Positions 9,992 to 59,761 of a stretch of 64,000 bases of DNA are shown piece by piece; position 1 is the first letter of the stretch, and the number at the start of each line of letters is the position of its first letter. The position numbers and the translations under genes were made by a program. Origin of the DNA: Ostreococcus lucimarinus (Eukaryota); assembly GCA_000092065.1 (NCBI GenBank), contig CP000589.1. One strand, written 5' to 3'. The notes beneath the pieces were generated by a model. The model was not told the origin of the DNA and searched no databases. It worked only from the letters and a program-made list of their open reading frames with translations.

Positions 9992-10790
9992 GTGCGATCG
10001 GTGATTACGAAGGTTTTACTCTGGTCCGTGGTTCTCGTGCCCGGGCGAACGTCGGGGGCGTGGAACGACGCGGCGAGAGCGTACTACACGCGCGAGACGG
10101 TGCGTCAACGTTCGACGCGTTACGACATGGTTGGATTCCAGCAAATGATGCAATCTCTCGCCGAACGCAATCGACGAATCGCGCGCGAGCGCATCGAGTC
10201 ACTCGTGAACGAGTTCAGAGTCGAGTCCGAGGCCGCGAGTCGTAAGTTCATCTCTCAAGCCGAACAAGATTACGAAACGTTCGCGCGCGCCGCCGGGCGC
10301 CAAGCCGCCGAGCGTTCGCGAGAGTCCAAAACCATCGCCTCTCGCGTCGAAGCCCTCACTCGCACTTGTTGGTTCGTGTATTCGTTGATTTCCGCGGTGG
10401 GAATTTTCTTTCTCGGTGCTGGGTTTAGCGTGATGCACGGGATGCACGGGTTGATGGACCCGATGCCGTCTGAAAACATACGTATTGGGATCGCGGTGTT
10501 GGGCGCGTCGGCGTTGTTGGAAGGATTTTCGTTAAAGGTGGCGTACGAGTCGTTGCGCGACAACGCCAAGGCGCAAGGAATGACGCTGAGGGAATTTATC
10601 AAATCTGGTAAAGATCCCACCAGCGTGGCCGTGCTCGCAGAAGATGCTGCCGCGGTGTTGGGTTGTGGCATCGCGGGTACGGCGCTCATCGCGTGCGAAG
10701 TGACGGGGAGTCCGATGTACGACGCGATGGGCTCGATTGCTGTCGGTGGCCTTCTTGGGGTGACGGCAATGTACCTCATCAACAGTAACC
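9992..10790 (+). CDS. Zinc transporter ZnT9/SLC30A9-like cation-diffusion-facilitator fragment (TM3-TM6 only). Probably a truncated gene or pseudogene, or an internal exon.
   Basis: YSLISAVGIFFLGAGFSV..GMTLREFIKSGKDPTSVAVLAEDAAAVLG..SPMYDAMGSIAVGGLLGVTAMYLINSN aligns closely to the human SLC30A9 TM3-TM6 region. No TM1-2 upstream in frame and no C-terminal domain downstream; the ORF runs into the 87-bp repeat. Confidence 0.5.
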
Positions 10791-10877
10791 TCGTGCGCCG
10801 TGAAGGCGACGGCGCGATCGCAAAGGGTGCGAACGATCGATCGACGCGACGCCGACGCGCGCGAACGCGTTCGAACG
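10791..10877. repeat. 87-bp perfect direct repeat, copy B
   Basis: Identical to 9782-9868. Confidence 0.85.
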
Positions 10878-11156
10878 GCGCCCGAGGACGACGACGGGGC
10901 GGTGTCCCCATCGGCGCCCCATCGGCGCCATCGGCGCGCCATCGAACGCGACGGATCGGGATGCGCGCGACGATGGGGACCGCGAGGCGTCGATGGCGAC
11001 GATGGCGTCGACACCGACGGTCGCGAGGGATCACGCGCGCGCCGACGAGGGGAGACGTCGCGTCGACCTCGACGGCGCGCGACGGCGCGATCGGGGCGTG
11101 TTATCCAAAGCGACGCGCGAGACTGACGACGCGGTTTTCTGGAATTCTTCGCGCAG

Positions 11157-11963
11157 GTGCACGCCGCAGCGCAGCGACGAAGCGTCGTCGTGAATGCGGG
11201 CACGGGTAAATTTATCGTCGGCGGGAACTGGAAGTGCAACGGCACGGCGGAGTCCGTCAAGTCGCTCGTGAAGGAACTAAACTCTGGGAAAATCGACGCC
11301 GACGTTGACGTCTACGTCGCGCCTCCGTTCGTCTTCATTCCTCGAGTGCAAAAGGAGCTCAACAACAAAAACTACGCCGTCGCCGCGCAGAACTGTTGGG
11401 TCTCCGCGGGTGGGGCGTTCACGGGTGAGGTGAGCGCGGATATGCTCGCCGACGCCGACATTCCGTGGGTGATTCTCGGGCACAGCGAACGCCGCGCGCT
11501 CTGCGGCGAGACGAACGAGTTCGTCGGGGAGAAGACCAAATATGCCTTGAGCAAGGGATTGAAGGTTGCTTTGTGCATCGGTGAGACGTTGGAACAGCGC
11601 GAAGCGGGCACGACTCTGGATATTTGCCGCGCGCAACTCAAGGCGGTGAACGACGTCGTGACCGCGGCGGACTGGGAAAACATCGTCATCGCGTACGAGC
11701 CCGTTTGGGCGATCGGTACCGGCAAGGTCGCGACGCCGGACCAAGCGCAAGAAGTGCACGCGGGCATTCGCAAGTGGTGCGCGGATAATATTTCTCCGGC
11801 GATTGCGTCGAAGATTCGCATTCAGTACGGCGGCAGCGTCAACGCCGGCAACTGCGACGAATTAGCTCAGAAAGAGGACATTGACGGCTTTCTCGTCGGC
11901 GGCGCGTCTTTGATCGGCGAGGCTTTCGTGACGATTTGCAACAGCGCCAAGCACTCTAAGTGA
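11157..11963 (+). CDS. TPI: Triosephosphate isomerase
   Basis: [27 protein letters not shown] and IQYGGSV signatures; 268 aa. Confidence 0.9.
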
Positions 11964-12171
11964 GCGAAGCGAACGAAGAGTGCGTGAACCTATCCAATCC
12001 TATTCGAATTGTCGCCGCGTGCGGCGCGCGCGCGCACCCCTGAATTAGTAGACTCAATATATATTTCTCGAACGCGAGCGTTCGCGGAGACGAGGCAAAA
12101 GTGTAATGTTAACCGTTTACGTTGCGTTCTATTCAAATCAATCTATTCAAATCAACCCACTGCGTGGACCA

Positions 12172-44760: not shown

Positions 44761-47418
44761 TTGCGAGCGATGGCGCGCGAAGACGGCGCGCGACGCAAGG
44801 AACGCAAGGACGAGCGCACGGTGGCGATGGAGAAGATGGTGATGGAACTCGCGGCGGCGGCGGCGGTGGTGGATGGGAATAAAACGTCGGTGAGCGAACG
44901 GGCGAGCGGGGCAAGCGGCGGGAGCAGCCTGACGAGGGCGCCGGACGCGGAGCGAGAGCGCGAGGAGGGACAAGCGTTGACGTTGGACGCGTTGGTGATG
45001 GCGAGCGCTGGATCGAATAAAAGAGCGAAGAGCGCGGGCGTTAAAGTGGCGAAACGGAAGAAGATGGAAGATAAGGGGGAGCGAAGGTGGTATTGTTGCT
45101 CGTGCAAGCAGACGCTGACGCCGGAACACTTCGATCCGAATTTGGAGACGTGTCGGTTGTGCTTGGCGAAACGTCGAGCGAAAGATCGGGCGAAGAAACG
45201 ACTTCGAGGGCTTCAGCTCAAGCATCACTTGTTGAGTGCGGATGAGAAAGATGTGGCGGCGTTTTTGTTGGGAGTGTATCATCCGGCGCTCACGCAGCAA
45301 GGGCCGCGATCTTCATCTTTTAACTCCATACAGATGAACGTGCAACGAGCGTCGATGGAAGTGAGCGCATTCGTAGAGGACTTCCGCAGCTTCCTCGAGG
45401 ACAAGCCCAAGGAACAAGCGGACAGATTGGTCCGCACGTTTTTGGGTTTGGACGATGCTGGAGAAAGGCTCACACCTCATCAAGTGATCAACGAGAAGGG
45501 TTCCGCGAAGAGGAATACGATGTCATCCAAAGCGAATAGCGCAAAGGCGACGCACAACTATCGCGCCCCAGCTTCATCGATGGGTGGCCGGCAAGAGTTG
45601 ACGAAGAGCCTGGACACCGTATACGATAAGTACGACGCGCTATTGAAAAACACCAGCGATGATCAAACGTGGGTTCGTTTCGCGGCGGAGAACGAGCAGG
45701 ACACTGATCTGGATGCTGAGAAGGTCAACTATTCCGCACCGATACATGAATCAGCTGCCGAAACCGGCACAAACGAGAAGGATGACGTGTACAGCGCCAT
45801 CATGCACGGCGCGGATCCCACCGTCAGTCATTACCTGTATCAATTCTTGTTCATGAATCAGCCGACAATCGGAGGCGAACACAGCACGATGGTCGTGGAG
45901 AGTGATCTCCCACAGCTTACGGGCCAGCTTCCATTGCGCGCAGTCGATAGCCTTTCGGAAGGGTCCAGCTTAAATGGTGCGACTAATGTGAGCTCGGAAT
46001 CGGACAACGTGTACAACACCTTGGATGAAGAGGAGCTGAACGGCAACGCATACGCGTTCAAGGGCTCGCTCGTGATGGGTTGGATTGGAGGCGCTCGTGA
46101 TGGAAAGAGAGAACTGCTAGCGAAAGAGAACGGTATCCTTCCGGACGATATGCACCCGCAAGCTGTGTTTAGCCATGGAAGACTGTTCGACGCGCGCACG
46201 CCTGGGAAGTTGGTTCCTCTCACCGAGACGGAGAACTTACACGGGTTTTCAGAAGATCTTGCGATTTTCCCCGTCAAGGATTCTTCGTCTGACATCGTTC
46301 GCATTCATATTCCGCCGGGATCTTTCAGCGAGGAGCTCGGTGTGAGAGCGTTGCACGATGGTCACTACATCGATTCTGAACTTCGCCACAGGCGCAACGG
46401 CGGAGCCGAGGTGATCCTATACCCGAACGGTAGAGACGATCGAGAGCGCAACGCAATCGTTATCCTCGGTGCTGTTCATTTACAATGTTTCGTTCGTAGC
46501 GGTACGGCGAAACAGATGCCTATCGGTTGCAACATCCCAGCGCTCTTCATACCGAGCCAAGCGCACGCGAAAGAGATTAGCGATGGCGTAGAGCACATTG
46601 CGCAAGTCAAGGGTACGAAAGCGGCCCGGCAGTTTTTGTCTTCGCTCGCGTACGTACTTGTGCACGGCGAACCAAAGAGCGCTAAGTTTGAGTTTGTCGT
46701 CGAAATGGCGCACATCCTCGCGCTCACGAGAACTTTGGATCTGCTCGAGCGATTGGCGATGTTGGCAAAGTCGTCGCTATCGAGCGATGATTCAGACACT
46801 TCTATCTCCGAAGTAGCGAGATTAGAAGTCTATAAGCCCTCGGATAATTTCTGGCAACACGCCGGTCATACCGACTCTTTTCTTGGAATCCTCCTTTGTC
46901 TTGTTGCGGGATTTATCCGTCTTATCGCTTCGGCTGTGAGCGGAGCGCGACTGAATTATGGATTCTATGCCACGCTCTTGGCCGCGGCCGCGCTTTCGGC
47001 AACGAACCCGAAGACCCGTGTAGACATCAAAAGCATTGCCTTCAACATGCTTTTTATCTGGGCACACGCAGCATCCATGCACTCAGATGATCTGACCAAT
47101 CAAATGACGTCTTACGGCAAGGCGCTGGTCATCACGCTTGCGCTCTCGGCACTGAACGCCTCGCATTCGCGCATGAGCAGCTCGTCAAGCTTTGTGTTAC
47201 CACAGCTCGCCTTTGCCGGAAGTGGCTATAACCCACACACCATTTTCCGCTTTATGAAGCAAGCGTTGCCTCAGGACGGAAGTATACCACAAAACGCGCT
47301 GCGAGCGCACGCCTGGACCGTTCACATCAGTTGCGCACTGCTGGCACCCGCGATCCTCATCTCTTGTATTTCGCAACTTCCAGGTGCACGAGTTCGCTCA
47401 AAATCTAAGCTTGCGTGA
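44761..47418 (+). CDS. Hypothetical protein (885 aa) with N-terminal Cys-rich motif (WYCCSCKQ..CRLC) and C-terminal hydrophobic helices; lower GC than flanks
   Basis: Long clean ORF; no family recognised. Confidence 0.45.
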   Translation: MRAMAREDGARRKERKDERTVAMEKMVMELAAAAAVVDGNKTSVSERASGASGGSSLTRAPDAEREREEGQALTLDALVMASAGSNKRAKSAGVKVAKRKKMEDKGERRWYCCSCKQTLTPEHFDPNLETCRLCLAKRRAKDRAKKRLRGLQLKHHLLSADEKDVAAFLLGVYHPALTQQGPRSSSFNSIQMNVQRASMEVSAFVEDFRSFLEDKPKEQADRLVRTFLGLDDAGERLTPHQVINEKGSAKRNTMSSKANSAKATHNYRAPASSMGGRQELTKSLDTVYDKYDALLKNTSDDQTWVRFAAENEQDTDLDAEKVNYSAPIHESAAETGTNEKDDVYSAIMHGADPTVSHYLYQFLFMNQPTIGGEHSTMVVESDLPQLTGQLPLRAVDSLSEGSSLNGATNVSSESDNVYNTLDEEELNGNAYAFKGSLVMGWIGGARDGKRELLAKENGILPDDMHPQAVFSHGRLFDARTPGKLVPLTETENLHGFSEDLAIFPVKDSSSDIVRIHIPPGSFSEELGVRALHDGHYIDSELRHRRNGGAEVILYPNGRDDRERNAIVILGAVHLQCFVRSGTAKQMPIGCNIPALFIPSQAHAKEISDGVEHIAQVKGTKAARQFLSSLAYVLVHGEPKSAKFEFVVEMAHILALTRTLDLLERLAMLAKSSLSSDDSDTSISEVARLEVYKPSDNFWQHAGHTDSFLGILLCLVAGFIRLIASAVSGARLNYGFYATLLAAAALSATNPKTRVDIKSIAFNMLFIWAHAASMHSDDLTNQMTSYGKALVITLALSALNASHSRMSSSSSFVLPQLAFAGSGYNPHTIFRFMKQALPQDGSIPQNALRAHAWTVHISCALLAPAILISCISQLPGARVRSKSKLA

Positions 47419-47509
47419 GCAAGCGTTGTATGAGATAAGTTTTGGTACCATTACACTCTTTTAACGCTATCATCTACTAAACTGATATTCCGCAAGCTCT
47501 CCAATTGCT

Positions 47510-48553
47510 TCACGTTGCCGCGCCCGTTGTGTACAATTCCATCGCCAAACTCACTAGTGCGATGCTAATGATTATTCGCAGCGGCATCGTCTCGTGTTCG
47601 ATACATACGTGAATGATGGCGACCACGAGCATCGACAGCGCGGACACAAAACATTTGTAAATGTTGTCCAGGTACTTCAGAATGAAAGACACTGCCAACC
47701 CGCCGAACGACAGGACGACCAAACTTACCCAAGCATAAAAGTTGAATCCGGTAAAAAGTCCATTCTTTAACGCTTCTCCTTTCCAAACTATTGGAATCGC
47801 ACCACAAATCACGCCCCAAAAGTACAGTTGCATATTCTGCCAATGAATGCTATCCGTCGCCCCGTCTTGGTTGCTGCCCTTGAGCAGCTTCTCCGACAAC
47901 ACACTCCCGGACGCAGCGATGAACGTGTTTATCACCACAAGCACGTACCCATACACACTCCCGCGTAACTGATTAGAATCTGTGATCTCCGCCGTGACAG
48001 ATCCCAATAATAACAAGAACAGCGCTCTCCACTGCAACGAAGTTAACCGCCGCCCGAGCAGCGTCCACATCAGCACCCCGGTACTTAAAATTTTCAAGTT
48101 ATTCATGATCTGATACGTCGACGGCCCCAGTTCTTGTATGATGAGGAGCATACAGTTATTCGCGACGAAATAGCACAGCGCGGGAAGCGCAAACGAGGTG
48201 AAGCGTTTCGCGCTCCACGTCACTTCTTCGACTCCTCCGCACGCCCGCGACGTCGTCAAAAAGATGAACGACAACACCAGCTTCACCGACTCCATCGTGA
48301 ACGCCAGCACCACGGTATCGTACGGATAATCATCATCACTGTTCCGGCTCAGACTCGCGAATATCGTTCCCGCCACTTGCAGGAACAAGTACGACACCAT
48401 GCTCAACACCTTGATCGACAGCGGCGTTTCCGTCCTTCCGTCGCTCTTCTTCTCGGTCGGCGTCGCATCTCGCGCGAGTTCGCCGTCCGCATCCTTCCCA
48501 TCTCGCGCGAGCAGCGATTCGCGCTCATTCGCGCTCGCGCTCGCGCTCGCCAT
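47510..48553 (-). CDS. Nucleotide-sugar transporter (SLC35A UDP-Gal/CMP-Sia transporter family)
   Basis: 10-TM layout. YFVANNCMLLIIQELGPSTYQIMNNLKILSTGVLMWTLLGRRLTSLQWRALFLLLLG aligns to the conserved SLC35A2 core. Confidence 0.8.
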   Translation of the reverse strand: MASASASANERESLLARDGKDADGELARDATPTEKKSDGRTETPLSIKVLSMVSYLFLQVAGTIFASLSRNSDDDYPYDTVVLAFTMESVKLVLSFIFLTTSRACGGVEEVTWSAKRFTSFALPALCYFVANNCMLLIIQELGPSTYQIMNNLKILSTGVLMWTLLGRRLTSLQWRALFLLLLGSVTAEITDSNQLRGSVYGYVLVVINTFIAASGSVLSEKLLKGSNQDGATDSIHWQNMQLYFWGVICGAIPIVWKGEALKNGLFTGFNFYAWVSLVVLSFGGLAVSFILKYLDNIYKCFVSALSMLVVAIIHVCIEHETMPLRIIISIALVSLAMELYTTGAAT

Positions 48554-48663
48554 CGCGTCGGTGTCTGCCGCAACGAACGATGGGTGTTACGTCGCGCGAG
48601 CCATCGCGGCAGACGCCGACGCGATTCGCGTCGTTCGCGGACGAAGCGACCGCGCGCGAACCA

Positions 48664-49955
48664 TGGAATGCGTCGATTCTCTCGACGACACCGCGCACGC
48701 GGAGGACGGGCACGAGGAGTACTGCGCGGACACGGCGGTGTCGACGGCGCGCGTCCGGACGCTGCCGAAGACGCGCATCGTCGCGCGAAACGCGTGCGCG
48801 ATCACGGGCGCGAGCGACTTCGAGCCGCTGCTCACGCTGCGAGATTTTCCGGTGGGGATGTACTGCGTCCCGGAGGAGTGGGACGGCGTGGAGTACGTCG
48901 CGGACATGCGATGGTGCGTGAGCAAGAGCTCGGGGGTGATCCAGCTCGCGGAACTCATCGAGGCGGAGACGCTGTATGATTGTCAACACGAGAGCGGCGC
49001 GATCGGAGGACTGTGGAAGCGACATCACGAAGAATTTTGTGAGTTTATCGATGCGTACGGATGTGAGAGCGTGTTGGAGATCGGCAGTGGACACGGACAT
49101 CTGGCGAAGGAGTTTGTCGCGCGAAGACGCGGGAAATGCCGATGGACAATGGTGGAACCGAACTTGCCGAGTTGGTTGCTCACGGGTGATCATCCGAGCG
49201 AAATTCACCCGATCTCGGCGTGGTTTTGTGATTCGTTCGAATTACCGAAAGACGTACCGAAAATCGACGCTGTGGTACATTCGCACACGTTTGAGCACAT
49301 CTACGATTACGACGAGTTTCTTCGCAACGTGGCAAGAATGGAACCCAAGTTTCAAATATTTTCGGTGCCACACCAGCGGGAATGGCTGGCGCGTGGTTGG
49401 CAAAATAGCATCATGTTCGAACACCCGCAACTGTTGACGCCGAAAGCGATCGAGTACATTATGTCACGTCACGGTTTCGAGTTGCAAGGAAAGAAAGTTT
49501 TCGCCGACGGGCACTCAATGTTTTACGCGTTTTCATACGCGGGAAACGCGAGCAAAAGCGAGACATCGCAGCAATCTCTCGATGAGTACGCAGAGAACAA
49601 GCGTCTTTTTCGTAACTGGCTCAAATCCAACGTTGATTTCGTCCAGAATGTGAACGATCGCATCGATGAAGCGACTATGAATGGAGAAAAGCCAACAGTT
49701 TACATGTTTGGGGCGCACATCTTCACGCAGTACCTCGTCAGCTTTGGATTGCGTATATCCGCAGTTGAGGCGATTTTGGATAACGCCGAAGGAAAGCAAG
49801 GAAAGAGACTGTACGGCCTTCCTCTCTTGGTGCACTCTCCGAAAATTCTCTCTAATGTAGAACGACCAATCGTCATCTTACGAGTCGGCGCGTACGCCGA
49901 AGAAATAAAACGCGGCATTCTCGAAGTGAACGCTCGCACGGTCTTTTGGGAGTAA
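48664..49955 (+). CDS. SAM-dependent methyltransferase with TylCIII-type architecture (NDP-hexose C-methyltransferase-like; bacterial sugar-modification type)
   Basis: VLEIGSGHGHL glycine-rich SAM motif. HSHTFEHIYD..FEHPQLLTPKAIEYIMSRHGFEL middle domain. C-terminal domain VYMFGAHIFTQYLV..ILDNAEGKQGKRLYGLPLL as in C-methyltransferase C-terminal domains. The ORF track begins at 48399, but that extension overlaps the transporter gene, so the start was set at the Met at 48664. Confidence 0.65.
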
Positions 49956-50025
49956 GGCGGGTACAGACGTTGAACGATTGTGTGTTAGCATAGCTTAGAA
50001 GCTGTAGTACTTACATATTTCAATT

Positions 50026-52347
50026 TCACGCCATGACACTTGTCACACCCCGCGCGGCCCACTCGGCGTCGTACAAATGCGTAAACGCATTGGCCAGCCT
50101 TAAAATGTACATGAAGGGAAAGTTGGGTTCGCTGAGCTTGCTCGCATCGATGCACCCGAACCACACAGCCACAAACAAAGGAAATCCAGCCAAAGCGCTG
50201 CTTACTTGTGCGATGCGCTCATCTTTCGGTACGACGACGTTGTCCAACTTTTGCCTAGAATCATAATACGTGTTGACGAGCACTTCGGCCAATTGTTCAA
50301 AGTCCTCTATGTCACAGCTCTCGACGAGAAGGAACACGATGTCTTCGATACCTTGACCTGGGCGCGCGTACTGCCAATCAATAAAGATTGGTTCGCCGCC
50401 GTTCACTTGATAATCCCAGAATAAATTTGGAAATTTGAGGTCACCGTGAAGAAGCGTTTGCGGAGCTCTTCGAAGTCGCAGCTCGGCGTCCGCAAAGTTT
50501 GCCGCCGCGTGGTCAAACAGCACGAAAACTTGTTCACCGAGCGTATTGAACCATCGATTTCGAAACGTTGCGTAGTGTTCTTGCACGTGCTGTCGCATAT
50601 ACGTGTCATAAACCGATAGCCTTCCCAACGGCGCGCCTCGGAAGTGTGAATGCAACCTCGCCATCGTGTTCACCACCTTGAGGCCGCTTTCAAGACAAAA
50701 GTCTGGCGCTCGATCATACTTTCGTAAATCCTCCATGACGATAGCGCGTGACGTCGGAAGGACGCCGTAGCAGATCGGTACACGTACCGGCATGATACTC
50801 GCAAAATCTTCATAGAACTTACACTCGGTGTCGTGAAGGTTCAAGTGTTCGCTCACCTCCATCAAGACTCCGTGATCAGAGTTTTCTTGCTTCACCACAA
50901 GATGTCTTGAACCGGAGGTCGCCGAAAGAATTTCAGAAATGTAGCCACCGCTTGCTCGAATCGGATACACAACGGATCGTTGACCCAATACTTCGGACAG
51001 TTCGTTAGAAAGGTGCGCCACAGAATTCATCGTCTCCAATAACTCCTCTGGGTCTTCAGCGACATAATTCGCGATAAACGAATCGCTGCCTGACACGTTT
51101 GTATTAACAGAGACGACGTATTGGCATCCCGCTGCGCGTCCGGAAATCAAACCGCATCGAGAGTCCTCGAAGACAATGGAGTTTCCGATCGAGACTCCAA
51201 GTCTTCTCGCCGCTTTCAAGTACGGCTCCGCGTTTGGTTTACCAAATCTCACGTCACTCGCGGAAATAAGCGGTAAATCATCCAATGCAAGATGTTTCAA
51301 CAAAGCTTTGGCGGCGGTTCTGTTGGAATTAGTCACTACGGACACTGGTCCGAGCGCACGACACTTTTGCACAAATTCCACCGCGCCTGGAATTTCTTTG
51401 GTCTTTTCGATGTATCGCAAGAACGCTTCGTCTTTCTGCTCTGACGAAATCTGCAGCTTGAAACGCTGCGCGACTTGGGCGTCAGATTGTCCGCTGATGT
51501 GTTTGAGGAAGAATTCTTCGTCGACAAACGCGCCCATCGGAGCGAGGATCTCGCGCCAAGCCGCGACGTAGGCATCCGTGGTGTCCACAAGAGTACCGTC
51601 CAAATCAAACAAAAATGCATATCCCTGTTTGGACAAGTACTGCTCTAAACACTCAGGCGTACCGATGTTCGAGTATTGGTCCTCAGCGATGACGACGGAG
51701 CTGACGTGCTTGTCTCGCGCGACGTACTCTTTCAAAACGCATGAAACGTACGCCTCGCCGCGCTCAAACTTTCCTTCTTGAGTCAAAATATCCTTCGTCA
51801 ATTCAAGAAATTCTTTTTCACTCGCGAACCAGTACGCTCCAGTGTTCGCGTAAGGACCCACGCGCGACTTCTCCGCGATTTTGGTCACGCGTCCGCCGTC
51901 CCCGCTCGTCTCAACGTATGAATATTTTGCCGCCGTCTCACGCTCACGCGCGGATTCCTCAAAGCACAGGACCGCCGCGCGCACCTCCGGTTGTTTTTCC
52001 AGCGCCCGAAACCGTTCGATGACGTCGCAATGATACACCGCATCGCAGTCCACCAACAGGAGCGACGCGTCGTTTGTCGCCGACACCGTCCCCAGCGCGA
52101 GCGCCGCCGTCTCCGCCGCCCCGACCGTCGCACGCGCCAAGCGCACCGTGGTGAACCCTCGTTCGGGGACGGAATCATCGAAATTCGTCACCACGACGCA
52201 CGTGTCGCGGTTGTCATCGACGCACAGCGCTTCCGTGACGACGTGTATCATCGCCTTGCCGATCACTGGGATGAGCGGCTTGATGTCTTCGTAGCCTTGC
52301 GCTCGGAAGCGCTCGCCGCGTCCACACGCTGGAATGAGGACGCGCAT
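50026..52347 (-). CDS. Tri-domain fusion enzyme: sugar-phosphate nucleotidyltransferase (LicC/MurU-like) + HAD-IA hydrolase (beta-PGM/phosphatase-like) + APH/choline-kinase-fold kinase
   Basis: N-terminal VLIPACGRGERF..KPL (G-x-G-x-R NTP-transferase motif). Middle FLFDLDGTLVDT (HAD motif I) with further HAD motifs. C-terminal LLHGDLKFPNLFW and IFIDWQYA (Brenner catalytic-loop and DFG-equivalent motifs of APH/ChoK kinases). Confidence 0.75.
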   Translation of the reverse strand: MRVLIPACGRGERFRAQGYEDIKPLIPVIGKAMIHVVTEALCVDDNRDTCVVVTNFDDSVPERGFTTVRLARATVGAAETAALALGTVSATNDASLLLVDCDAVYHCDVIERFRALEKQPEVRAAVLCFEESARERETAAKYSYVETSGDGGRVTKIAEKSRVGPYANTGAYWFASEKEFLELTKDILTQEGKFERGEAYVSCVLKEYVARDKHVSSVVIAEDQYSNIGTPECLEQYLSKQGYAFLFDLDGTLVDTTDAYVAAWREILAPMGAFVDEEFFLKHISGQSDAQVAQRFKLQISSEQKDEAFLRYIEKTKEIPGAVEFVQKCRALGPVSVVTNSNRTAAKALLKHLALDDLPLISASDVRFGKPNAEPYLKAARRLGVSIGNSIVFEDSRCGLISGRAAGCQYVVSVNTNVSGSDSFIANYVAEDPEELLETMNSVAHLSNELSEVLGQRSVVYPIRASGGYISEILSATSGSRHLVVKQENSDHGVLMEVSEHLNLHDTECKFYEDFASIMPVRVPICYGVLPTSRAIVMEDLRKYDRAPDFCLESGLKVVNTMARLHSHFRGAPLGRLSVYDTYMRQHVQEHYATFRNRWFNTLGEQVFVLFDHAAANFADAELRLRRAPQTLLHGDLKFPNLFWDYQVNGGEPIFIDWQYARPGQGIEDIVFLLVESCDIEDFEQLAEVLVNTYYDSRQKLDNVVVPKDERIAQVSSALAGFPLFVAVWFGCIDASKLSEPNFPFMYILRLANAFTHLYDAEWAARGVTSVMA

Positions 52348-52572
52348 ACTTATATTTTCATATAAATCTCCGCGGCGTGGGTCAGATCACGCGCGCGGCG
52401 CCCAGGGGCGCGTAATGACATTTCGTCGGGTGGAGGGTGTTACAAAATAAACGCGCGCGAGCTAAAGCCCGCCGGGCTAAGAATTGGAGTTGCGTCTAAC
52501 TCTTAGACCCCGTCCCGGTGCGTGCGCGGTGAAGTCGCGCCACCGTACACCATCCCTTGATTTCGAGGAAGG

Positions 52573-53208
52573 CTAGCACGTGGGTCCACGCGCCGCGGGC
52601 CGCTCGGGAGGCGCCGGCTTGGCCGCCGCCGAGCCCGCGGCCTCAGCCTCAGCCGCGGCCGCGGCCGCGCGCTTCTCGAGCCAGTCTTTGGCTCGCTCGC
52701 GGTATTTAGCGTTCGCCTCTGTACTAATCTTGTTTGCCGCGTTACAGGCATTGATCATCGTCGTGTTGCCCTCAGAGATTCCGTGACACCAATGCACACC
52801 CATCCCGTCGCGATCCGGCCACGCCGAGTGCCCTAACGATATGCCGCGACGGACGTTGCAGTGGGCGTAGTCCGCCACGTGAAAAATAGATGCCTCAGGA
52901 CTCATTTGTGAACGGGGACTTACGCACGCGACGCTTTTCAATACATCCGTTCCTTGACCCCAAAAAGCATTGGCGCGCGAACTGTGCACGACGTAAAAGG
53001 CGTCGTTGTACTTCCAATACCAGTCCTCGTCAAAGATAAGCGTAGGTTGGACAGCGTCCGTGTCGTGGTTCGTGTCCCGACCGTCCCACAACGTCCTGGC
53101 AAAGTCCACGGGCGGTGGCGCGTACCAAAAGTACTCGGGTCGACCGTGCATGTACCACGAAAAGTGTATGTTTTTCTCCTTCTCCACTTTACGCGCCATG
53201 CAAAGCAA
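52573..53208 (-). pseudogene. Truncated tandem paralogue of the C-terminal half of the 53237-54394 gene
   Basis: LCMARKVEKEKNIHFSWY..PPPVDFARTLWDGR..FDEDWYWKYNDAFYVVHSS is colinear with LCMARKVEQEKNIHFSWF..PPPVDFATTLWDGR..FDEDWRHKYNDALYAVHSS. No N-terminal half present. Confidence 0.5.
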
Positions 53209-53236
53209 CTTCTGAGCTTTGTCAAAGTGCTTCTAA

Positions 53237-54394
53237 CTAGCACGTCGGTCCCATCGATTGCATCGGCGGGTCGTCGGCGTACGCGTTCAAAGAGCGCCAG
53301 TGGCTTACTTGCGCTCGGTAAACTTTAGTCTCTGACACACTAATTGCCTGGGCACGCTCGCACGGATGTATGTGCCTCTGAAGTGTGTAATCTACGCAAC
53401 TCAGCGTACCTTGTCCTGGCTTTGCGGTTGGCCGAGCCGATCGCTCGAACCCGATTCCCACGGCCCTCGACGCCGCCCCGACGAGGTCTACCACTTTGTG
53501 AAGGGCTGTCTCCGGAGTCATACGTTCAAGGAAGACGTGACCGGTCGCGGGGATCTCAGCTCGGCATGGTAATTTCGACAAAATCGATGACCCTGGGCCC
53601 AGTATACCATCGGCGTGCGAACTGTGCACGGCGTATAAGGCGTCGTTGTACTTGTGACGCCAATCCTCGTCAAAGATGAACGCGTGCGCGCTGTCTGTAC
53701 CCCTACCGTCCCACAACGTCGTGGCAAAGTCCACGGGCGGCGGCCCGTACCAAAAGTAATCGGGTCGACTCCGAACGAACCACGAAAAGTGTATGTTTTT
53801 CTCCTGCTCCACTTTGCGCGCCATGCAAAGCAGCCTTTTGCTCAAATCGAACTGCGCGTACGTCGTCGCCGGCGAAAAGTAGTCGTCTTTTTTCACCTTG
53901 AATCCACGCGCAGCGCAATGCTGTCCCCAAGGATCCTTCGTGTCTAAGTCATAAGCCGAGGCCGTGTAAAACGAAACCGCCACGGGTCGAATGACGTCCA
54001 GCGCGCGTTGCAGCACGTGCGGATACACCTTTGGAAACATCGCCGATCGGTCTCGCCACCCGCTCACGTCTGCGATACTCAGGAGCATGATCGGGTGCAC
54101 GTTCACGCAGCGCTCCGCCATCCAATCCAGCACATTCGTCTTCAAACCCTTGGAGACGTGATCCAACACCATCCCGCGCACCGATCCTCCGATGAGGAAC
54201 GCGACGTCCGCGCGTCCCTCCGCGCACGACTGCGCGCCGAGCGCGTCGCGCCGCGCCGTCGCCGACGCGACGACGATCGCCACCGCCGCGATCAGCGACA
54301 ATAACGACCCAACGCGCGTCCGTCGCGCGCTCCTAGAGCCATCATCGCCGATGAGCGGCGTCGCCTCGTCCGTCATCGCGCCGCGAACACCCAT
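53237..54394 (-). CDS. Type-II membrane (Golgi-type) protein of unknown function, possibly a glycosyltransferase-like enzyme
   Basis: Short cytosolic tail, TM anchor (VGSLLSLIAAVAIVVASA), large luminal domain. Paralogue fragment immediately downstream. Confidence 0.45.
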   Translation of the reverse strand: MGVRGAMTDEATPLIGDDGSRSARRTRVGSLLSLIAAVAIVVASATARRDALGAQSCAEGRADVAFLIGGSVRGMVLDHVSKGLKTNVLDWMAERCVNVHPIMLLSIADVSGWRDRSAMFPKVYPHVLQRALDVIRPVAVSFYTASAYDLDTKDPWGQHCAARGFKVKKDDYFSPATTYAQFDLSKRLLCMARKVEQEKNIHFSWFVRSRPDYFWYGPPPVDFATTLWDGRGTDSAHAFIFDEDWRHKYNDALYAVHSSHADGILGPGSSILSKLPCRAEIPATGHVFLERMTPETALHKVVDLVGAASRAVGIGFERSARPTAKPGQGTLSCVDYTLQRHIHPCERAQAISVSETKVYRAQVSHWRSLNAYADDPPMQSMGPTC

Positions 54395-54421
54395 CGATCA
54401 CGAACCGCGTCGCCGCGCGCG

Positions 54422-54612
54422 CGACGCGCGTCGGTTTTCGCGTCGCCGCGCGCGCGACGCGCGTCGGTTTTCGCGTCGCCGCACCGCGCGCGCGATGGTG
54501 CGTCGCACAGTGCGACGCCGATGCATCGCATCGCGCGCGTCGCCATGTCCTCGGCGCCCCTGCACGACGCGCGCGCGCGCGGAAGGATGTCCGACGCGAA
54601 GGATGTCCGACG
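54422..54612. repeat. Near-identical segmental duplicate of 56904-57048 (5' end and start codon region of the S9 peptidase gene), with internal 32-bp and 12-bp tandem duplications
   Basis: Direct by-eye alignment; 2 mismatches. Confidence 0.85.
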
Positions 54613-54617
54613 TATCA

Positions 54618-55015
54618 ATACGTCGACGGCCCCAGTTCTTGTATGATGAGGAGCATACAGTTATTCGCGACGAAATAGCACAGCGCGGGAAGCGCAAACG
54701 AGGTGAAGCGTTTCGCGCTCCACGTCACTTCTTCGACTCCTCCGCACGCCCGCGACGTCGTCAAAAAGATGAACGACAACACCAGCTTCACCGACTCCAT
54801 CGTGAACGCCAGCACCACGGTATCGTACGGATAATCATCATCACTGTTCCGGCTCAGACTCGCGAATATCGTTCCCGCCACTTGCAGGAACAAGTACGAC
54901 ACCATGCTCAACACCTTGATCGACAGCGGCGTTTCCGTCCTTCCGTCGCTCTTCTTCTCGGTCGGCGTCGCATCTCGCGCGAGTTCGCCGTCCGCATCCT
55001 TCCCATCTCGCGCGA
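54618..55015. repeat. Segmental duplicate of 48113-48510 (N-terminal ~134 codons of the nucleotide-sugar transporter gene, minus strand), 398 bp, essentially identical
   Basis: The antisense ORF 54615-55565 reproduces ARDGKDADGELARDATPTEKK...QELGPSTY of the transporter. Confidence 0.9.
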
Positions 55016-55188
55016 ACAGCGGTTCGCGAGTCTGGAAAGCGCTTCCGTGCGGTACAAGCGAGTCGCCCCAATAGGAGTAGGTGTAGCCTAGCTGTAGCTG
55101 TAGCTCCGTCGCCGACAAATGTCCGACCGATCGACAGAGACCGACGCGCGTCCGCAGCCGACACTGCGCGCGCCCACGCGACGCGAGA

Positions 55189-56742
55189 ATGAGTGACAAA
55201 GACGCGCAAAGCATCTCTCGCGGCGAGCGCTCGAATTTGCTCGCGCGCAACGCCGCGAACGGCGTCGTTGAGGGTGTTGCGAGCATCCTGGACGAAGAGC
55301 GCGGTGAGACCGACGTGAGCGAGCGATCCCGAGCGAGAACGTCGACGTCGCGAGGATGTCTCGCGAGTGTTGCGCTGATGGCGTGTGCGGTCGGCGCGGG
55401 GATGGCGGTCGCGTCGCGCGGGGGGGTCGACGACGCGAGGACGAGCGCACGAGCTCGCGGCGGTGGGAAATCGACGCTCGGGATCAGTGGAGCGACACGA
55501 GCTCGCGGCGGTGGGAAATCGACGCTCGGGATCAGTGGAGCGACGGGAGTGCGGACGTATATCATAGCAGATACGTCGCCCGGAGACGAGATGGAGAGAT
55601 CTAGGAAAGGACGCGATTACGTGTTCAACCTGTTCAAAACGCACGGTGGTTTGAGCGACGCCGAAGCGCGCAATACTGTGGAAATCTCGAGTGCGACGTT
55701 TCCTTCGCTTTGGCCGGATACCTTCGAGACAGCGCGAAGCGCGACGCACGATGTACTAGCGGGAGCCCTTGCTGCTTCAGAAGCGAACGTTCCAACCAGT
55801 GAGTTGCCGTATCCCATCAGACAGGTTCACGAATCGCAGCTCAATCCACAGCACCGTTGCGTCGGCGAAAAATGCGTATTCCCGTATAACCACCACCTTG
55901 GATGTCTTCTATCTCACATGTCTGTGTGGAAGAAAGCTATTTCGCGAGGTGAGGATCGGTTTGCCGTGTGGGAGCAAGATGGTATGGGGATCGCTTCCGT
56001 GAGCCCGCTTGACTACACAGAGCTCGGACGCCAGCTTCCTCGCGACGCAGATATGGTCTGGCTCCTCCCCATTGGAAGAAGCACCGGTCAATTCGTGAAA
56101 AAGTTCCGCTCAAGGGCGTTTGGCACGTGGGGGAAAGGTACCTGGGGTCTCGTAAAGACAGACTGGTCGCCCGAATCGATGCACACGGCGATGAATTCAA
56201 CGCACGTTTATTTGTACAAGTGGAACAAAATGTGCTCGTGGGCAGGAACGGCAGCTCTCATGTTCACCAAGCAAGGCGTCGAGAAAATTCTTCGGTACAG
56301 TACCGAACACAGTCTCGACATGATCGATGCTTTCCTCATTGGCGGATGCATCCATAAATCGGGAAAGACGAGTCGTCTTTCCTTGAACTGTTATCACGCG
56401 TCGAGCGTGCCAACCAAGAAAGAGCTCCTGGGTGGAATCGTGCCCGATTGGTACACTGACGAAACCGTGGGCGATCGAGCACTTCCTCAAGAGCAGGTTG
56501 ACGCCATGGATCGGGATGACGCCAAGTTCAACTCGCTTGGTTGTCAGCGCGGCGGCGACGAGTTCAAGTCAAAATCTGCCTGGATTCCCACGTCCTGGGC
56601 TGGAGACGACTCCGCGGATTCGTGCGTTCCCTCCTGGAACGCCCCGGTGGACGTGTGCGATGCATCCGTGAAGTATCCACTCGATGGACACAAGTACTCA
56701 TACCTCGGCAGCGCGATGTTGCGTACAAAGCCCGAGCGTTAG
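55189..56742 (+). CDS. Type-II membrane glycosyltransferase family 25-like protein
   Basis: N-terminal TM anchor. GCLLSHMSVWKKAISRGEDRFAVWEQDG resembles the GT25 motif (GC.LSH...W..I......IFEDD). Contains an in-frame 48-bp duplication. Confidence 0.55.
   Translation: MSDKDAQSISRGERSNLLARNAANGVVEGVASILDEERGETDVSERSRARTSTSRGCLASVALMACAVGAGMAVASRGGVDDARTSARARGGGKSTLGISGATRARGGGKSTLGISGATGVRTYIIADTSPGDEMERSRKGRDYVFNLFKTHGGLSDAEARNTVEISSATFPSLWPDTFETARSATHDVLAGALAASEANVPTSELPYPIRQVHESQLNPQHRCVGEKCVFPYNHHLGCLLSHMSVWKKAISRGEDRFAVWEQDGMGIASVSPLDYTELGRQLPRDADMVWLLPIGRSTGQFVKKFRSRAFGTWGKGTWGLVKTDWSPESMHTAMNSTHVYLYKWNKMCSWAGTAALMFTKQGVEKILRYSTEHSLDMIDAFLIGGCIHKSGKTSRLSLNCYHASSVPTKKELLGGIVPDWYTDETVGDRALPQEQVDAMDRDDAKFNSLGCQRGGDEFKSKSAWIPTSWAGDDSADSCVPSWNAPVDVCDASVKYPLDGHKYSYLGSAMLRTKPER
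55451..55546. repeat. 48-bp tandem duplication x2 inside the GT25-like coding region (encodes ARARGGGKSTLGISGAT twice)
   Basis: Seen directly. Confidence 0.85.
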
Positions 56743-56968
56743 CGACGCTTGTAAAGAAACAGCCTAGGGGTGCTTGAATCCGGTATTGGGAATTTCCCGA
56801 TACGTATCAAAAACGACTGTTTTCATACTGTTTGCCCATACGAAAAGCCTAATACGTTGATACGCCAATACGGTATCAGCTCGTATCAAGTGCAGCAGGC
56901 CTAGACGCGCGTCGGTTTTCGCGTCGCCGCACCGCGCGCGCGATGGTGCGCGGCACAGTGCGACGCCG

Positions 56969-59761
56969 ATGCATCGCATCGCGCGCGTCGCCATGTCCTC
57001 GGCGCCCCTGCACGACGCGCGCGCGCGCGGAAGGATGTCCGACGCGAAACGCGCGCTCGTCGCGCGCGCGAGAGGCGCGTTCGACGCCGTCGCGGGACGG
57101 CGTCGACGCGTGAACGTCGCGAGCGGTGGTGACGAACGCGGGACGACGACGCGGGAGGACGCGCGCGCGAGCGATGGGGACGACGCGAACGGGTACCGAC
57201 GCCCGCCGGACGCGCTGACGCAGTTCACGGAGCGACCGCAGAGCCCGAACGTGACGGTGTCGCCCGATCGAAGGCGCTTGCTGTATTTGCACAAACCGCC
57301 GCCGCTGCCGGACGTGGCGACGCTCGCGCGAGAGGAGGTGAAACTGGCGGGCGTGCGGATCGATGCGGCGCAAAATTCGACGTCGAGGATGGGACATCAA
57401 ACGAAATTGGCGATCGGAGCGATGCCTGCGAGAGAGGAGGAGATCGGAGCGGCGGAAGATTTCGTCGGGACTCCGGAGAACGCGCTGATTAACTACGTGA
57501 GTTGGTCGCCGGATGGGACAAAGATAGCGTTTACGACGCGCTCGAGCGGAGAACCGGGTGAGCCAGAGCGAGGACCGTTGACACTTTGGATCGCCGACGC
57601 GCACACGCGACAGTGCCGAGTGCTGCTTCCCGATCGTGGGTTGAATACTATTTTTGAGTCGTACAGTTGGTTGAACGACGACGTCATCGTCGCGTGTTGC
57701 ATTCCAGAAAATCGACCCAAGGAAGCGCCGAAGCGACCGCAGACGCCGTTCGGGCCGAGAATTCAAACAAACCGAGGTGGTAACGTGGCACAGGCGCGAA
57801 CGTACGCCGATTTATTGAAAGACTCGCACGATGCGGATTTATTCGATTACTATTGTTCGTCGGAACTCGTGGCGGTGGACGTCTCCACCGGGGCGACGAA
57901 GACTTGGGGTGATGGAAAGGCGAGAATCTACACGCGCTGCGATCCGTCGCCCGACGGAAAATATGCTATCGTCGAAGCCATTCATCGGCCCTACTCGTAC
58001 TCGGTGCCGTGTGGTAGGTTTCCAAAGAAGGTTTGGGTGGCGGACAGCGACGGCAAAGTCGTGCGCGAGGTCGCGGACTTACCTTTGGCCGAGAATGTGC
58101 CCATCGTGCACAACGCCACGCGTAAAGGACCTCGTGCGGTGAACTGGCGTTCGGATAAGAGTGCGTCGTTGTACTGGACCGAGGCGCAAGATGAGGGTGA
58201 TCCGAGAGTCGAAGTCTCCCCTCGAGACGTCACGTACACGGTCGACGTCGGCAAAGATCCTGCGGCGACGCCCAAGACGCTGTTTCAAACTGATTATCGC
58301 TACGGTGGCGTCGCATGGGGCGGCGATGATATGTCGATTTTATATGAGAGTTGGTACAAGACACGCACGTCGCGAGTGTGGGTGACTTCGCCGGGCGACG
58401 CCGATCCGAATGCGACAAAGCGCATGCTTTGGGAGCGCGACTACGAAGACAGTTACAACGCTCCCGGTTCATTTGCTACACGCCGGACGGAAGATGGATC
58501 GTACATTCTGGCGCGTGTCGTCGGACCGACGCCGTTGGGAGAAGGTAAACCCACGGGTCCGGGAGTGAAGCTGTTGTTGCAGGGAGACGGCGCGAATCCA
58601 GAAGGCGATAGACCCTTCATCGACTTGTTCGACGTCGACACCGGCGCCAAGCATCGAATGTGGGAAAGCAAACCGCCGTATTTGGAGCATCCGGGGAGTT
58701 TGATCAGCGATTACGGCGGCCCCGAGGCGGCGCCTGTCACGCTCGAAACTATGCGCATATTGTTCTCTCGAGAGAGCCCGTCGGAGAATTCGCAATTCTT
58801 TTCGCTTCAAATGACCGCCGACGGCTCGCCCGGAAAAGAGGTGAAAATTTCAAATTTCCCTCATCCACATCCCGACTTAAAGGAGCTGCCGAAGGAAATA
58901 ATCAAGTACAAGCGCGACGACGGCGTTGAGCTCAACGGCACGCTGTACACGCCGCCCGGGTACGACGCCGCGCACGATGGTCCGCTACCACTCCTGATGT
59001 GGGCTTATCCACGAGAGTTCAAAACAAAAGAAGCTGCATCGCAGCTACGCGATTCACCGTATCGCTTCACCGGTATCGGCCCATCGAGCGCGTTGGTGTG
59101 GCTTGCGCGTGGATACGCAGTGCTCGACGGGCCGGCGTTGCCCATCATCGGCGAAGGCGAGGGTGTGGAACCGAACGATACGTACGTCGAACAACTCGTC
59201 GCTGGCGCGCGTGCGGCGGTGAACGAAGTCGTTGCGCGCGGTGTCGCGGATCCGGAGCGCATCGCTGTCGGCGGTCACTCGTATGGCGCGTTCATGGCGG
59301 CGAATTTGCTCGCGCACGCACCGGATTTGTTCGCGTGCGCCATCGCGCGAAGCGGGGCATACAATCGAACGCTAACGCCTTTCGGGTTTCAAGCCGAAGA
59401 ACGCACGCTGTGGGAAGCGCCGGAAACGTACAACGCGATGTCACCGTTCATGAACGCGCACAAGATTAAAAAGCCGATTTTATTGATCCACGGCGAGGAG
59501 GATCAAAACAGCGGTACCCATCTCATGCAATCCGAACGCTTCTTCTCCGCTCTCAAGGGTAACGGTGCCGAGGTCAAGCTTGTCATTTTACCGCACGAGT
59601 CTCACGGCTATCGCGCCAAAGAAAGCATCAACCACATGCTCGCCGAGACGTCTGATTGGCTGGACGCGCACTGCGCGCCAGGGGCGAAGAAAGCCGCCGA
59701 GGCGCGCGCGGAGGAAGCCGCCAAGGCGAAGCGCGACGCCGAGGAGATGGTTTCGAAGTAA
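56969..59761 (+). CDS. S9 family serine peptidase (prolyl oligopeptidase / glutamyl endopeptidase CGEP-like), organelle-targeted
   Basis: N-terminal beta-propeller region and a C-terminal alpha/beta hydrolase with GGHSYGA (GxSxG), plus downstream Asp and His (HESHGY). Confidence 0.8.
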   Translation: MHRIARVAMSSAPLHDARARGRMSDAKRALVARARGAFDAVAGRRRRVNVASGGDERGTTTREDARASDGDDANGYRRPPDALTQFTERPQSPNVTVSPDRRRLLYLHKPPPLPDVATLAREEVKLAGVRIDAAQNSTSRMGHQTKLAIGAMPAREEEIGAAEDFVGTPENALINYVSWSPDGTKIAFTTRSSGEPGEPERGPLTLWIADAHTRQCRVLLPDRGLNTIFESYSWLNDDVIVACCIPENRPKEAPKRPQTPFGPRIQTNRGGNVAQARTYADLLKDSHDADLFDYYCSSELVAVDVSTGATKTWGDGKARIYTRCDPSPDGKYAIVEAIHRPYSYSVPCGRFPKKVWVADSDGKVVREVADLPLAENVPIVHNATRKGPRAVNWRSDKSASLYWTEAQDEGDPRVEVSPRDVTYTVDVGKDPAATPKTLFQTDYRYGGVAWGGDDMSILYESWYKTRTSRVWVTSPGDADPNATKRMLWERDYEDSYNAPGSFATRRTEDGSYILARVVGPTPLGEGKPTGPGVKLLLQGDGANPEGDRPFIDLFDVDTGAKHRMWESKPPYLEHPGSLISDYGGPEAAPVTLETMRILFSRESPSENSQFFSLQMTADGSPGKEVKISNFPHPHPDLKELPKEIIKYKRDDGVELNGTLYTPPGYDAAHDGPLPLLMWAYPREFKTKEAASQLRDSPYRFTGIGPSSALVWLARGYAVLDGPALPIIGEGEGVEPNDTYVEQLVAGARAAVNEVVARGVADPERIAVGGHSYGAFMAANLLAHAPDLFACAIARSGAYNRTLTPFGFQAEERTLWEAPETYNAMSPFMNAHKIKKPILLIHGEEDQNSGTHLMQSERFFSALKGNGAEVKLVILPHESHGYRAKESINHMLAETSDWLDAHCAPGAKKAAEARAEEAAKAKRDAEEMVSK

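Follow-up and report, generated by a model that had tools for sequence, protein, structure and literature searches.

An apparently polymorphic accessory cassette of candidate glycan genes between conserved genes of an ordinary Ostreococcus lucimarinus chromosome

Introduction

Virus resistance in the Mamiellophyceae has so far been tied to one odd, glycosyltransferase-rich chromosome. Can a gene cassette of that kind also sit among the housekeeping genes of an ordinary chromosome, and if so, what might it make and how did it get there? A 64,000-nucleotide (nt) stretch of Ostreococcus lucimarinus DNA (GenBank assembly GCA_000092065.1, contig CP000589.1; the whole stretch is called the window here) raises this question. 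An earlier note on it, made from the sequence alone, described a self-contained glycan-modification module of about 12 kb, beginning at position 44761, with bacterial-style sugar enzymes, a transporter and duplicated fragments, and left open whether it has to do with virus resistance.

The answer that we propose, to which we give a probability of roughly 0.6, is that 47.46–56.90 kb of the window is an accessory glycan-gene cassette between conserved genes, that its core is a DUF7796-like protein, a tri-domain fusion enzyme and a methyltransferase which would act in a nucleoside diphosphate (NDP)-sugar pathway, and that it evolved as a non-homologous patchwork. The three-gene linkage recurs on the small outlier ('viral immunity') chromosome of O. 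tauri, in many genomes of giant viruses and, in a further Ostreococcus lineage, at a third locus.

Results

The block lies on an ordinary, core-syntenic part of an O. lucimarinus-type chromosome and not on the outlier chromosome. Where an outlier chromosome is small and of low guanine-plus-cytosine (GC) content, the block's flanks are housekeeping genes of 60% GC whose order agrees with that in other Ostreococcus lineages over 20 kb or more; three proteins of O. lucimarinus CCE9901 (XP_001419474, XP_001419690 and XP_001419691; 670,853-bp record) share 90%-identity clusters with window proteins. Two other Ostreococcus lineages share the order HDAC, YchF, Rsm22, unknown protein (827–863 amino acids, aa), S9 peptidase, Iwr1, kinase and PIG-L. 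The unknown protein is the full-length orthologue, at 37–42% identity, of the 882-aa protein on the left flank of the window block, and only 130–190 nt separate its gene from that of the S9 peptidase (identity to the window's S9 of 82% and 77%), with no island between them. The synteny comparison thus bears out an accessory block, lineage-specific and structurally variable between conserved housekeeping flanks. It also trims the block to ~9.4 kb (47463–56903), as the 882-aa gene with which the earlier note began it is core: its membership in the island was rejected on synteny, since it stands between Rsm22 and S9 in every Ostreococcus lineage examined.

At the centre of the block is the nucleotidyltransferase-HAD-kinase fusion, all three domains of which clear their Pfam cut-offs: PF00483 at 37.7 bits against 21.2, HAD_2 at 79.7 against 23.8 (with TIGR01509 at 56.9 against 29.4) and APH at 41.7 against 23.2. 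Motif conservation, scored over 30–91 homologues, was invariant or nearly so. Across 30 homologues, the G-x-G-x-R...K signature of the nucleotidyltransferase (G9, G11, R13, K23) and the DxDGT (DLDGT), K and E-D motifs of the HAD domain are invariant; the kinase conserves its HGDxKxxN and DWQ motifs. The best matches of the nucleotidyltransferase are sugar-1-phosphate enzymes (Arch_glmU, AglF, PDB 4evw), and those of the HAD domain in the PDB are beta-phosphoglucomutase and sugar phosphatases, with MupP among the profile matches at an expectation value (E) of 8e-12. For the kinase, an AlphaFold2 model with a predicted local distance difference test score (pLDDT) of 95 matched PsiK, 5-methylthioribose kinase, LicA and N-acetylhexosamine 1-kinase (NahK) in Foldseek, the first three with probability 1.0.

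These classes of enzyme are known to work together. In sugar kinases that have this fold, the phosphate goes to the anomeric carbon. Two bacterial routes, MupP/AmgK/MurU of N-acetylmuramic acid (MurNAc) recycling and HddA/GmhB/HddC of GDP-heptose synthesis, reach an NDP-sugar through successive reactions of a HAD phosphatase, a kinase and a nucleotidyltransferase, although HddA belongs to the GHMP and not to the APH-fold kinases. The fusion resembles MupP/AmgK/MurU in its three enzyme classes, and AmgK and NahK share the fold of its kinase; it differs from both pathways in that the three activities are fused and in that its scores for their enzymes are well short of the NCBIfam cut-offs. None of the island proteins received an equivalog-level assignment from NCBIfam, and literature searches on the tri-domain enzyme and on DUF7796 returned nothing relevant. 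Read together, the matches of the three domains are most economically explained by a route from sugar phosphate through free sugar and sugar-1-phosphate to NDP-sugar on one polypeptide: the HAD domain would remove or move a phosphate, the kinase would phosphorylate the anomeric carbon and the nucleotidyltransferase would add a nucleoside monophosphate. Alternatively, the route could run through a 1,n-bisphosphate, as in heptose activation.

The neighbouring methyltransferase, whose length of 430 aa is taken from gene calls on metagenome contigs, carries a class-I S-adenosylmethionine (SAM) domain (Methyltransf_23, 50.1 bits against a cut-off of 27). Its sole PDB match is the D-mycarose 3-C-methyltransferase MtmC (4rv9; residues 43–415, E 4e-4), and the alignment extends through the Methyltransf_14 region, so that the likeness to TylCIII, TcaB9 and MtmC covers an N-terminal domain, the SAM domain and a C-terminal Methyltransf_14-like domain. 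Aligned with MtmC, the H..H and E-H motifs fall in register ('HsHtfeHi'/'grHvfaHi' and 'mfEHpq'/'yhEHls'; alignment only); we take the aligned His and Glu-His to be active-site residues, the role given to them in studies of TcaB9. On this evidence we treat the TylCIII-type architecture as a sign of distant kinship and the activity as a prediction. The enzyme would modify the NDP-sugar, possibly by C-methylation, with a dehydratase and a reductase encoded elsewhere.

Three further proteins would complete the pathway. Firstly, the predicted nucleotide-sugar transporter holds up well, matching PF04142 over profile positions 4–315 of 315 (140.4 bits, cut-off 27) and TIGR00803 at 77.5 bits (cut-off 55.85); this SLC35 protein would take the product into the Golgi. 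Secondly, the type-II membrane protein p385 belongs to a very small family, represented by only 33 clusters in a set of 1.84 billion proteins, of which 8 of 17 relatives match DUF7796, at a best E of 1.9e-7. A PDB profile search with p385 found no match, and we regard it as a candidate lumenal transferase. Thirdly, a GT25-like protein shares the type-II topology, so that both of the membrane anchors described earlier are present. On the lumenal side, the DUF7796-like and GT25-fold proteins would attach the product or a sugar related to it to glycoconjugates of the cell surface. The earlier scheme, in which an activated sugar is made, imported into the Golgi and attached, agrees with the predicted gene content.

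The GT25 assignment comes from the predicted fold. All 18 best PDB hits of a low-confidence AlphaFold2 model (pLDDT 58) in Foldseek are of GT25 type (E 3e-5 to 4e-3), among them 8xgx, COLGALT1 (9evk/9evj) and mimivirus R655 (9crz), and the HLGCxxSHxxxW...E(x)D core of the protein can be aligned with that of a genuine GT25 protein from O. tauri. GT25 structures (LgtB-type beta-1,4-galactosyltransferases, COLGALT1, R655) are the only ones matched at E below 1e-3; unlike GT25 families at large, the window family is limited to a handful of Ostreococcus-type clusters, 3 of 9 members of which match PF01755 at all (best E 5.5e-4). A variant, P0299, 96% identical to the window protein, has a single copy of a 48-nt unit that is duplicated in the window. 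A 710-aa paralogue (42% identity) with a long acidic, repetitive stem is encoded at 10001–12133 of a 672,823-bp contig (L031); it stands among the core genes SNF2, eIF5 and RRM, and therefore the GT25-like family also has a stable core member.

Beside p385 lies the predicted truncated tandem paralogue, which the analysis bore out as a 5'-truncated relative (52573–53208). It is without ~180 N-terminal residues, membrane anchor included, while the corresponding copy in a sister subclade is full length (L117); it is probably decaying. Two independent 30-kb metagenome contigs (L001 and L002) both end inside it, near window position 52666, which fits assemblies broken by the p385/paralogue repeat or by strain variation.

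The main rival to an NDP-sugar, which we consider unlikely, is a phospho-head group (CDP-choline, CDP-ethanolamine or a phosphonate) made as in bacteria by a kinase like LicA and a cytidylyltransferase like LicC; the head group would then be the substrate of the methyltransferase. The best structural matches of the kinase do include pneumococcal LicA and choline/ethanolamine kinases (LicA at TM-scores of 0.60/0.68 and the lowest root-mean-square deviation), some viral homologues match Pfam Choline_kinase and several bear the JGI name 'choline kinase/CTP:phosphocholine cytidylyltransferase', and in one virus-like contig a PAP2_C gene abuts the fusion gene. The other two domains point the other way, having sugar-phosphate phosphatases with beta-phosphoglucomutase, and sugar-1-phosphate enzymes, as their best matches. 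The linked methyltransferase has the architecture of an NDP-sugar C-methyltransferase, C-terminal domain included, an SLC35 nucleotide-sugar transporter is in the island, and no LicD-type transferase was found.

Relatives of the fusion form two groups, an Ostreococcus type at 49–79% identity and proteins of ~800 aa at 26–34%. In O. tauri, counterparts of the fusion (62%; annotated as 'aminoglycoside phosphotransferase') and the methyltransferase (68%) lie tail-to-tail on CAID01000019.2, adjoining genes for a GT25 protein and a TPT transporter; from their order and the names in the annotation we assign the pair to ostta19g00460/470 and the four genes to ostta19g00460–00490. All four are down-regulated, with log2 fold changes of -1.29, -1.90, -2.56 and -1.24 in OtV5-resistant lines (Yau 2016, PMC5082852, S2 Table). 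This gives concrete support to the connection with virus resistance, a connection that we infer. The two cassettes share the tail-to-tail pair, a GT25-type protein and a sugar transporter alongside, and low-GC, rearrangement-prone DNA. They differ in that the O. tauri cassette is on the small outlier chromosome and the window cassette in a core-syntenic stretch of an ordinary one, and in that the window has DUF7796-like genes, of which none turned up in O. tauri in the 10 kb around the pair. Pieces of O. tauri chromosome 19 have apparently moved to chromosomes 6 and 8 (PMC5082852), and population work describes exchange between ordinary chromosomes and chromosome 19, together with small variation in the gene content of ordinary chromosomes (3 insertions, 10 deletions) (PMC5498103). 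In a third Ostreococcus lineage (L112) the fusion (74%) adjoins a p385 homologue (32%) near Ku and fibrillin genes. The p385-like and fusion pair is thus found at no fewer than three (>=3) genomic sites, and the methyltransferase at two loci where the contig reaches far enough.

The more distant group leads to giant viruses. Genomic context, checked for a minority of the ~30%-identity matches, was that of a giant-virus-like contig or an IMG/VR giant-virus record for every non-Ostreococcus relative so examined, with dUTPase, GIY-YIG, DNA methylases and a TBP-like gene as viral neighbours; none was bacterial. The enzyme assignments of the earlier note mostly stand, and its term 'bacterial-style' needs to be qualified. 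An IMG/VR scan found 188 loci with a full-length fusion at 26–31% identity, many named GVMAG. In a set of 80 of these loci, a homologue of the methyltransferase lies no more than 8 kb away in 14 (lowest E 1e-40; in many cases the immediate neighbour), and a DUF7796-like open reading frame (ORF), often an immediate neighbour, occurs in 16. Giant-virus clusters (for example L011, L059 and L063) thus resemble the algal one in having a full-length fusion, often beside a Methyltransf_14-type methyltransferase and/or a DUF7796-like protein, with GT2, GT11 and small GT25-like genes as neighbours; in L011, fusion and methyltransferase are tail-to-tail, as in the algae. The viral methyltransferase homologue at L011:12395–14326 is 643 aa long, with an extra N-terminal region of ~250 aa. 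A search of the 80 loci for homologues of the nucleotide-sugar transporter found none, and a BFVD search gave no cultured-virus counterpart of the tri-domain protein. An ancient exchange between viruses and Mamiellales is likely.

How long has the cassette been in place? The sister subclade (L115, L117) has transporter, methyltransferase, fusion, paralogue, p385 and S9, with both p385 copies full length, and its 882-aa and S9 proteins are 85% and 98% identical to those of the window. Synonymous divergence (dS) from this subclade is 0.08–0.16 for island genes and 0.14–0.16 for the flanks; the two are comparable, and the island has therefore passed down vertically since the subclades split. In the same comparison, the ratio of nonsynonymous to synonymous divergence (dN/dS) is 0.05 for the S9 peptidase, 0.08 for the methyltransferase, 0.25 for the fusion, 0.55 for the transporter, 0.89 for p385 and 0.6–0.9 for the truncated paralogue. 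Methyltransferase and fusion are under purifying selection, and p385, the predicted lumenal protein, evolves almost neutrally or under diversifying selection.

Base composition is a poor guide to origin here. The whole window measures 60.0% GC, not the ~65% given earlier, and GC falls to 50–54% at 45–48 kb and 49–52 kb; of the two low-GC patches described before, the one at 45.3–47.4 kb is real, as part of this longer stretch, and the one at 52.5–53.3 kb is not (~59%). Four genes within 44.8–52.3 kb have 53–55% GC and 61–69% at third codon positions (GC3), against ~57–65% and 70–77% for most other long ORFs of the window. The 882-aa gene is one of the low ones, and its orthologues in other lineages are syntenic and low in GC too (50.5–54.1% against 56.8% at their loci); it is therefore a fast-evolving core gene and not an island member. 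Since a core gene has just as low a GC content, both in the window and in sister lineages, we do not take low GC as a sign of foreign origin.

It is very unlikely that DNA of a giant virus or a bacterium was recently inserted straight into this site, unconnected to the outlier chromosome. Such an insertion would account for the linkage of fusion, methyltransferase and DUF7796-like genes in many giant-virus contigs and for the 53–55% GC of the four leftmost genes of the low-GC stretch in a window of 60%. The best viral identity, however, is 26–31%, against 62–68% for O. tauri, and island genes and core genes of the flanks show like dS relative to the sister subclade; a recent viral insertion was rejected on these two grounds. 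Moreover, the GC3 of 61–69% is near the host's 70–77%, the low GC is common to the neighbouring core gene, and the window block has no viral hallmark genes, tRNA or terminal repeats.

Self-comparison of the window found duplicated fragments far beyond chance: 411 nt at 99.5% identity (R1) and 145 nt at 98.6% (R2). The segment that holds the GT25-like gene recurs, with the same end points, at a second locus in L118 (99.4% identical, between zf-DNL/unknown and DUF842) and in L030 (96.7%, adjoining DUF842 and PIG-S). Junctions show 3-nt microhomology and a filler with a 12-nt templated copy. We read the duplicated fragments as end-joining scars.

Four arrangements were seen among environmental contigs that match the window at 99% identity or more. 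In H1 (L021, L022, L023, L028), p385 runs to S9 via a single R2 (54600 joined to 56904) and the GT25-like gene is lacking. H2 is the window arrangement, and its R2a/17-nt filler/R1b junction is present at 99–100% identity in at least five independent assemblies (L024–L027, L029). H3 (L113) has a complete transporter gene continuous with the R1b version and the sequence upstream of the GT25-like gene, in agreement with many 423-aa transporter gene calls. H4 (L116) is 99.7% identical up to window position 47462 and then unrelated. These data suggest at least two well-supported alleles, H1 and H2, and two candidates, H3 and H4. The replacement sequence of H4 (L116:12697–15708) encodes a 519-aa ORF and may represent a fourth allele or a chimeric contig; the ORF was considered by eye as a DNA methyltransferase and dropped when a Pfam search gave no match.

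We suggest that the locus evolved as a non-homologous patchwork around a simpler allele of transporter, methyltransferase, fusion, paralogue, p385 and S9. On the simplest reading, one end-joining event turned an H1-type chromosome into H2 by bringing in a second R2, a 139-nt spacer, the segment with the GT25-like gene and the piece of the transporter gene, material possibly derived from an H3-type allele. A transposon or integrase mechanism was rejected, as the window sequence has no inverted repeats of at least 30 nt and no tRNA, and the island ORFs have no transposase-like Pfam matches. For both repeats, tandem duplication with differential loss asks for more steps than one end-joined insertion, or the merging of two alleles, would, in view of L021/L023 (H1), L113 (H3) and the second GT25-like locus. 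That the block is decaying or neutral debris, or its duplicated fragments an assembly artefact, without current function, would suit the truncated paralogue, the transporter and S9 fragments and the dN/dS of 0.89 for p385, and is the least probable account of all given the methyltransferase and fusion dN/dS of 0.08 and 0.25 with intact catalytic motifs, transcribed and regulated O. tauri counterparts, and a junction shared by five or more independent metagenome assemblies. The features of the locus are collected in Table 1.

Table 1. Positions of the island, its genes, its repeats and its flanking genes in the 64,000-nt window
Feature	Position	Strand	Remarks
Unknown membrane protein, 882 aa	44770..47418	+	Syntenic core gene, left flank of island
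Accessory, structurally polymorphic island	47463..56903		~9.4 kb; lacking in two lineages; L116 diverges at 47462
Nucleotide-sugar transporter, SLC35 type, 347 aa	47510..48553	-	PF04142 E 9e-41; TIGR00803 E 1e-21
Repeat R1a	48113..48523		In 5' part of transporter, codons ~11-147; 411 nt, 99.5% identical to 54618-55028
SAM methyltransferase, TylCIII/TcaB9/MtmC-like three-part architecture, 430 aa	48663..49955	+	Methyltransf_23 E 3e-13; Methyltransf_14 E 0.01
Tri-domain fusion, 773 aa	50026..52347	-	NTP_transferase, HAD_2/Hydrolase and APH/EcKL all above Pfam cut-offs
Fusion domain 3 (aa 446-773), APH/choline-kinase/MTR-kinase-fold small-molecule kinase	50029..51012	-	APH E 1.5e-10; EcKL E 6e-10
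Fusion domain 2 (aa 243-445), HAD-IA, beta-phosphoglucomutase/sugar-phosphatase type	51013..51621	-	HAD_2 E 4e-22; TIGR02009 E 7e-25
Fusion domain 1 (aa 1-235), sugar-1-phosphate nucleotidyltransferase-like	51643..52347	-	PF00483 E 2e-9; TIGR03992 E 3e-14; PDB 4evw
Truncated tandem paralogue of p385	52573..53208	-	42-46% aa identity to p385; 240 nt at 80%
p385, type-II membrane protein, small DUF7796-like family	53237..54394	-	N-terminal hydrophobic anchor; DUF7796 E 0.01
33-nt tandem duplication upstream of p385	54406..54471		Two exact copies
Repeat R2a	54456..54600		Copy of S9 5' end: 65 nt upstream and first 80 nt coding; 145 nt
17-nt filler at R2a/R1b junction	54601..54617		12-nt templated copy of adjacent GGATGTCCGACG
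Repeat R1b	54618..55028		Transporter pseudogene fragment, codons ~11-147, no 3' part
Gene-sized segment with GT25-like gene	55026..56764	+	1,739 nt; recurs with same end points elsewhere
GT25-like protein, 517 aa, type-II anchor (coding sequence)	55189..56742	+	Pfam GT25 E 2e-3, below cut-off
48-nt tandem duplication	55448..55543	+	Adds 16 aa to GT25-like stem
139-nt spacer between GT25-like segment and R2b	56765..56903		Missing from H1 contigs
Repeat R2b	56904..57048		True 5' end of S9 peptidase gene; 98.6% identical to R2a
S9 peptidase, chloroplast glutamyl endopeptidase type	56969..59761	+	Housekeeping right flank; Peptidase_S9 E 3e-29

Of the flanking genes, the S9 peptidase has land-plant matches at ~50% identity that bear the name glutamyl endopeptidase. 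The 882-aa protein, for which a Pfam search gave no match, evolves fast (37–42% identity where S9 has 77–82%; dN/dS 0.5 within the clade), has a CxxC region and a hydrophobic C-terminal third, and is consistently below its neighbours in GC. Elsewhere, the window starts with a perfect tandem repeat of 56-nt period (1–138 = 57–194, 100% identity). A 90-nt direct repeat (98.9%) joins 9779–9868, at the 5' end of a 1324-aa ORF (5903–9874, minus strand), to 10788–10877, inside a 361-aa ORF (10127–11209, plus strand). Stretches of 70–73% GC at 19.0–20.5, 21.5–23.0, 33.0–34.5 and 60.0–61.5 kb, similar to one another at 70–88% over 40–150 nt, probably encode Arg/Ala-rich low-complexity sequence.

Discussion

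Several findings weigh against our reading of the locus as an NDP-sugar cassette of outlier type with multiple alleles. Firstly, some of the family assignments fall short. Hidden Markov model (HMM) searches placed the transporter, NTP_transferase, HAD_2 and APH above cut-off and left Methyltransf_14 and GT25 below it: p385 reaches 15.2 bits against DUF7796 (PF25072; cut-off 27), the GT25-like protein 18.4 against PF01755 (cut-off 24), so that fold prediction supports its GT25 label and the HMM does not, and the C-terminal domain of the methyltransferase 16.0 against 23.5 (21.1 for the O. tauri counterpart; 3 of 8 viral homologues pass, at 24.4–34.7). Nor is the N-terminal four-cysteine zinc domain (Methyltransf_13) intact in the window methyltransferase. 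It keeps two of the four zinc-site cysteines, one per CxxC pair in the MtmC alignment, a half-lost motif where all eight viral homologues keep CxxC...CxxC. The SAM domain and the MtmC alignment speak for the TylCIII-type label and the zinc site against it; identity to that family is ~20%. Secondly, the chemistry has gaps. TylCIII-type C-methylation requires a 4,6-dehydratase and a ketoreductase, and neither is among the island genes, so the module is not self-contained; the kinase fold search does not split sugar from amino-alcohol substrates, and its best TM-score is to LicA. Thirdly, the correspondence with O. tauri is partial, since its TPT transporter is not orthologous to the SLC35/Nuc_sug_transp protein here, nor its GT25 protein to the GT25-like one (tblastn E 1e-3 only). 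Fourthly, H1 and H3 come from short-read metagenome assemblies, in which mis-threading through the 145-nt and 411-nt repeats is conceivable; against this, H1 contigs L021–L023 (45–93 kb) cross R2, L021 and L023 also cross R1, and the sister subclade is independently H1-like.

Relative to the searchable literature, three things are new: an outlier-type cassette on an ordinary chromosome, its apparently multi-allelic state in the wild, and the recognition of a three-gene module shared with giant viruses. The locus suggests that an outlier-type cassette, with counterparts of genes lowered in resistant O. tauri, can reside on an ordinary chromosome, at a site that is apparently structurally polymorphic in wild O. 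lucimarinus-type populations, in contrast to the small variation reported for the ordinary chromosomes of O. tauri. Since its core genes match that O. tauri cassette and a gene set common in giant viruses, the cassette is a candidate determinant of the cell-surface sugars that take part in virus-host interaction. A bolder proposal, which we hold to be possible and would ourselves bet against, is that the DUF7796-like protein, the fusion and the C-methyltransferase form an undescribed nucleotide-sugar pathway of picoalgae and hundreds of giant viruses, possibly for a branched C-methyl sugar, and that the resulting surface glycan decides virus susceptibility. If this were true, the multi-allelic site would act as a second outlier-like 'immunity' locus in O. 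lucimarinus populations. The compact, conserved three-gene module is a specific biochemical target in the search for the glycan of prasinovirus-host recognition, and lets the exchange of genes that giant viruses and their algal hosts have in common be studied in a manageable example.

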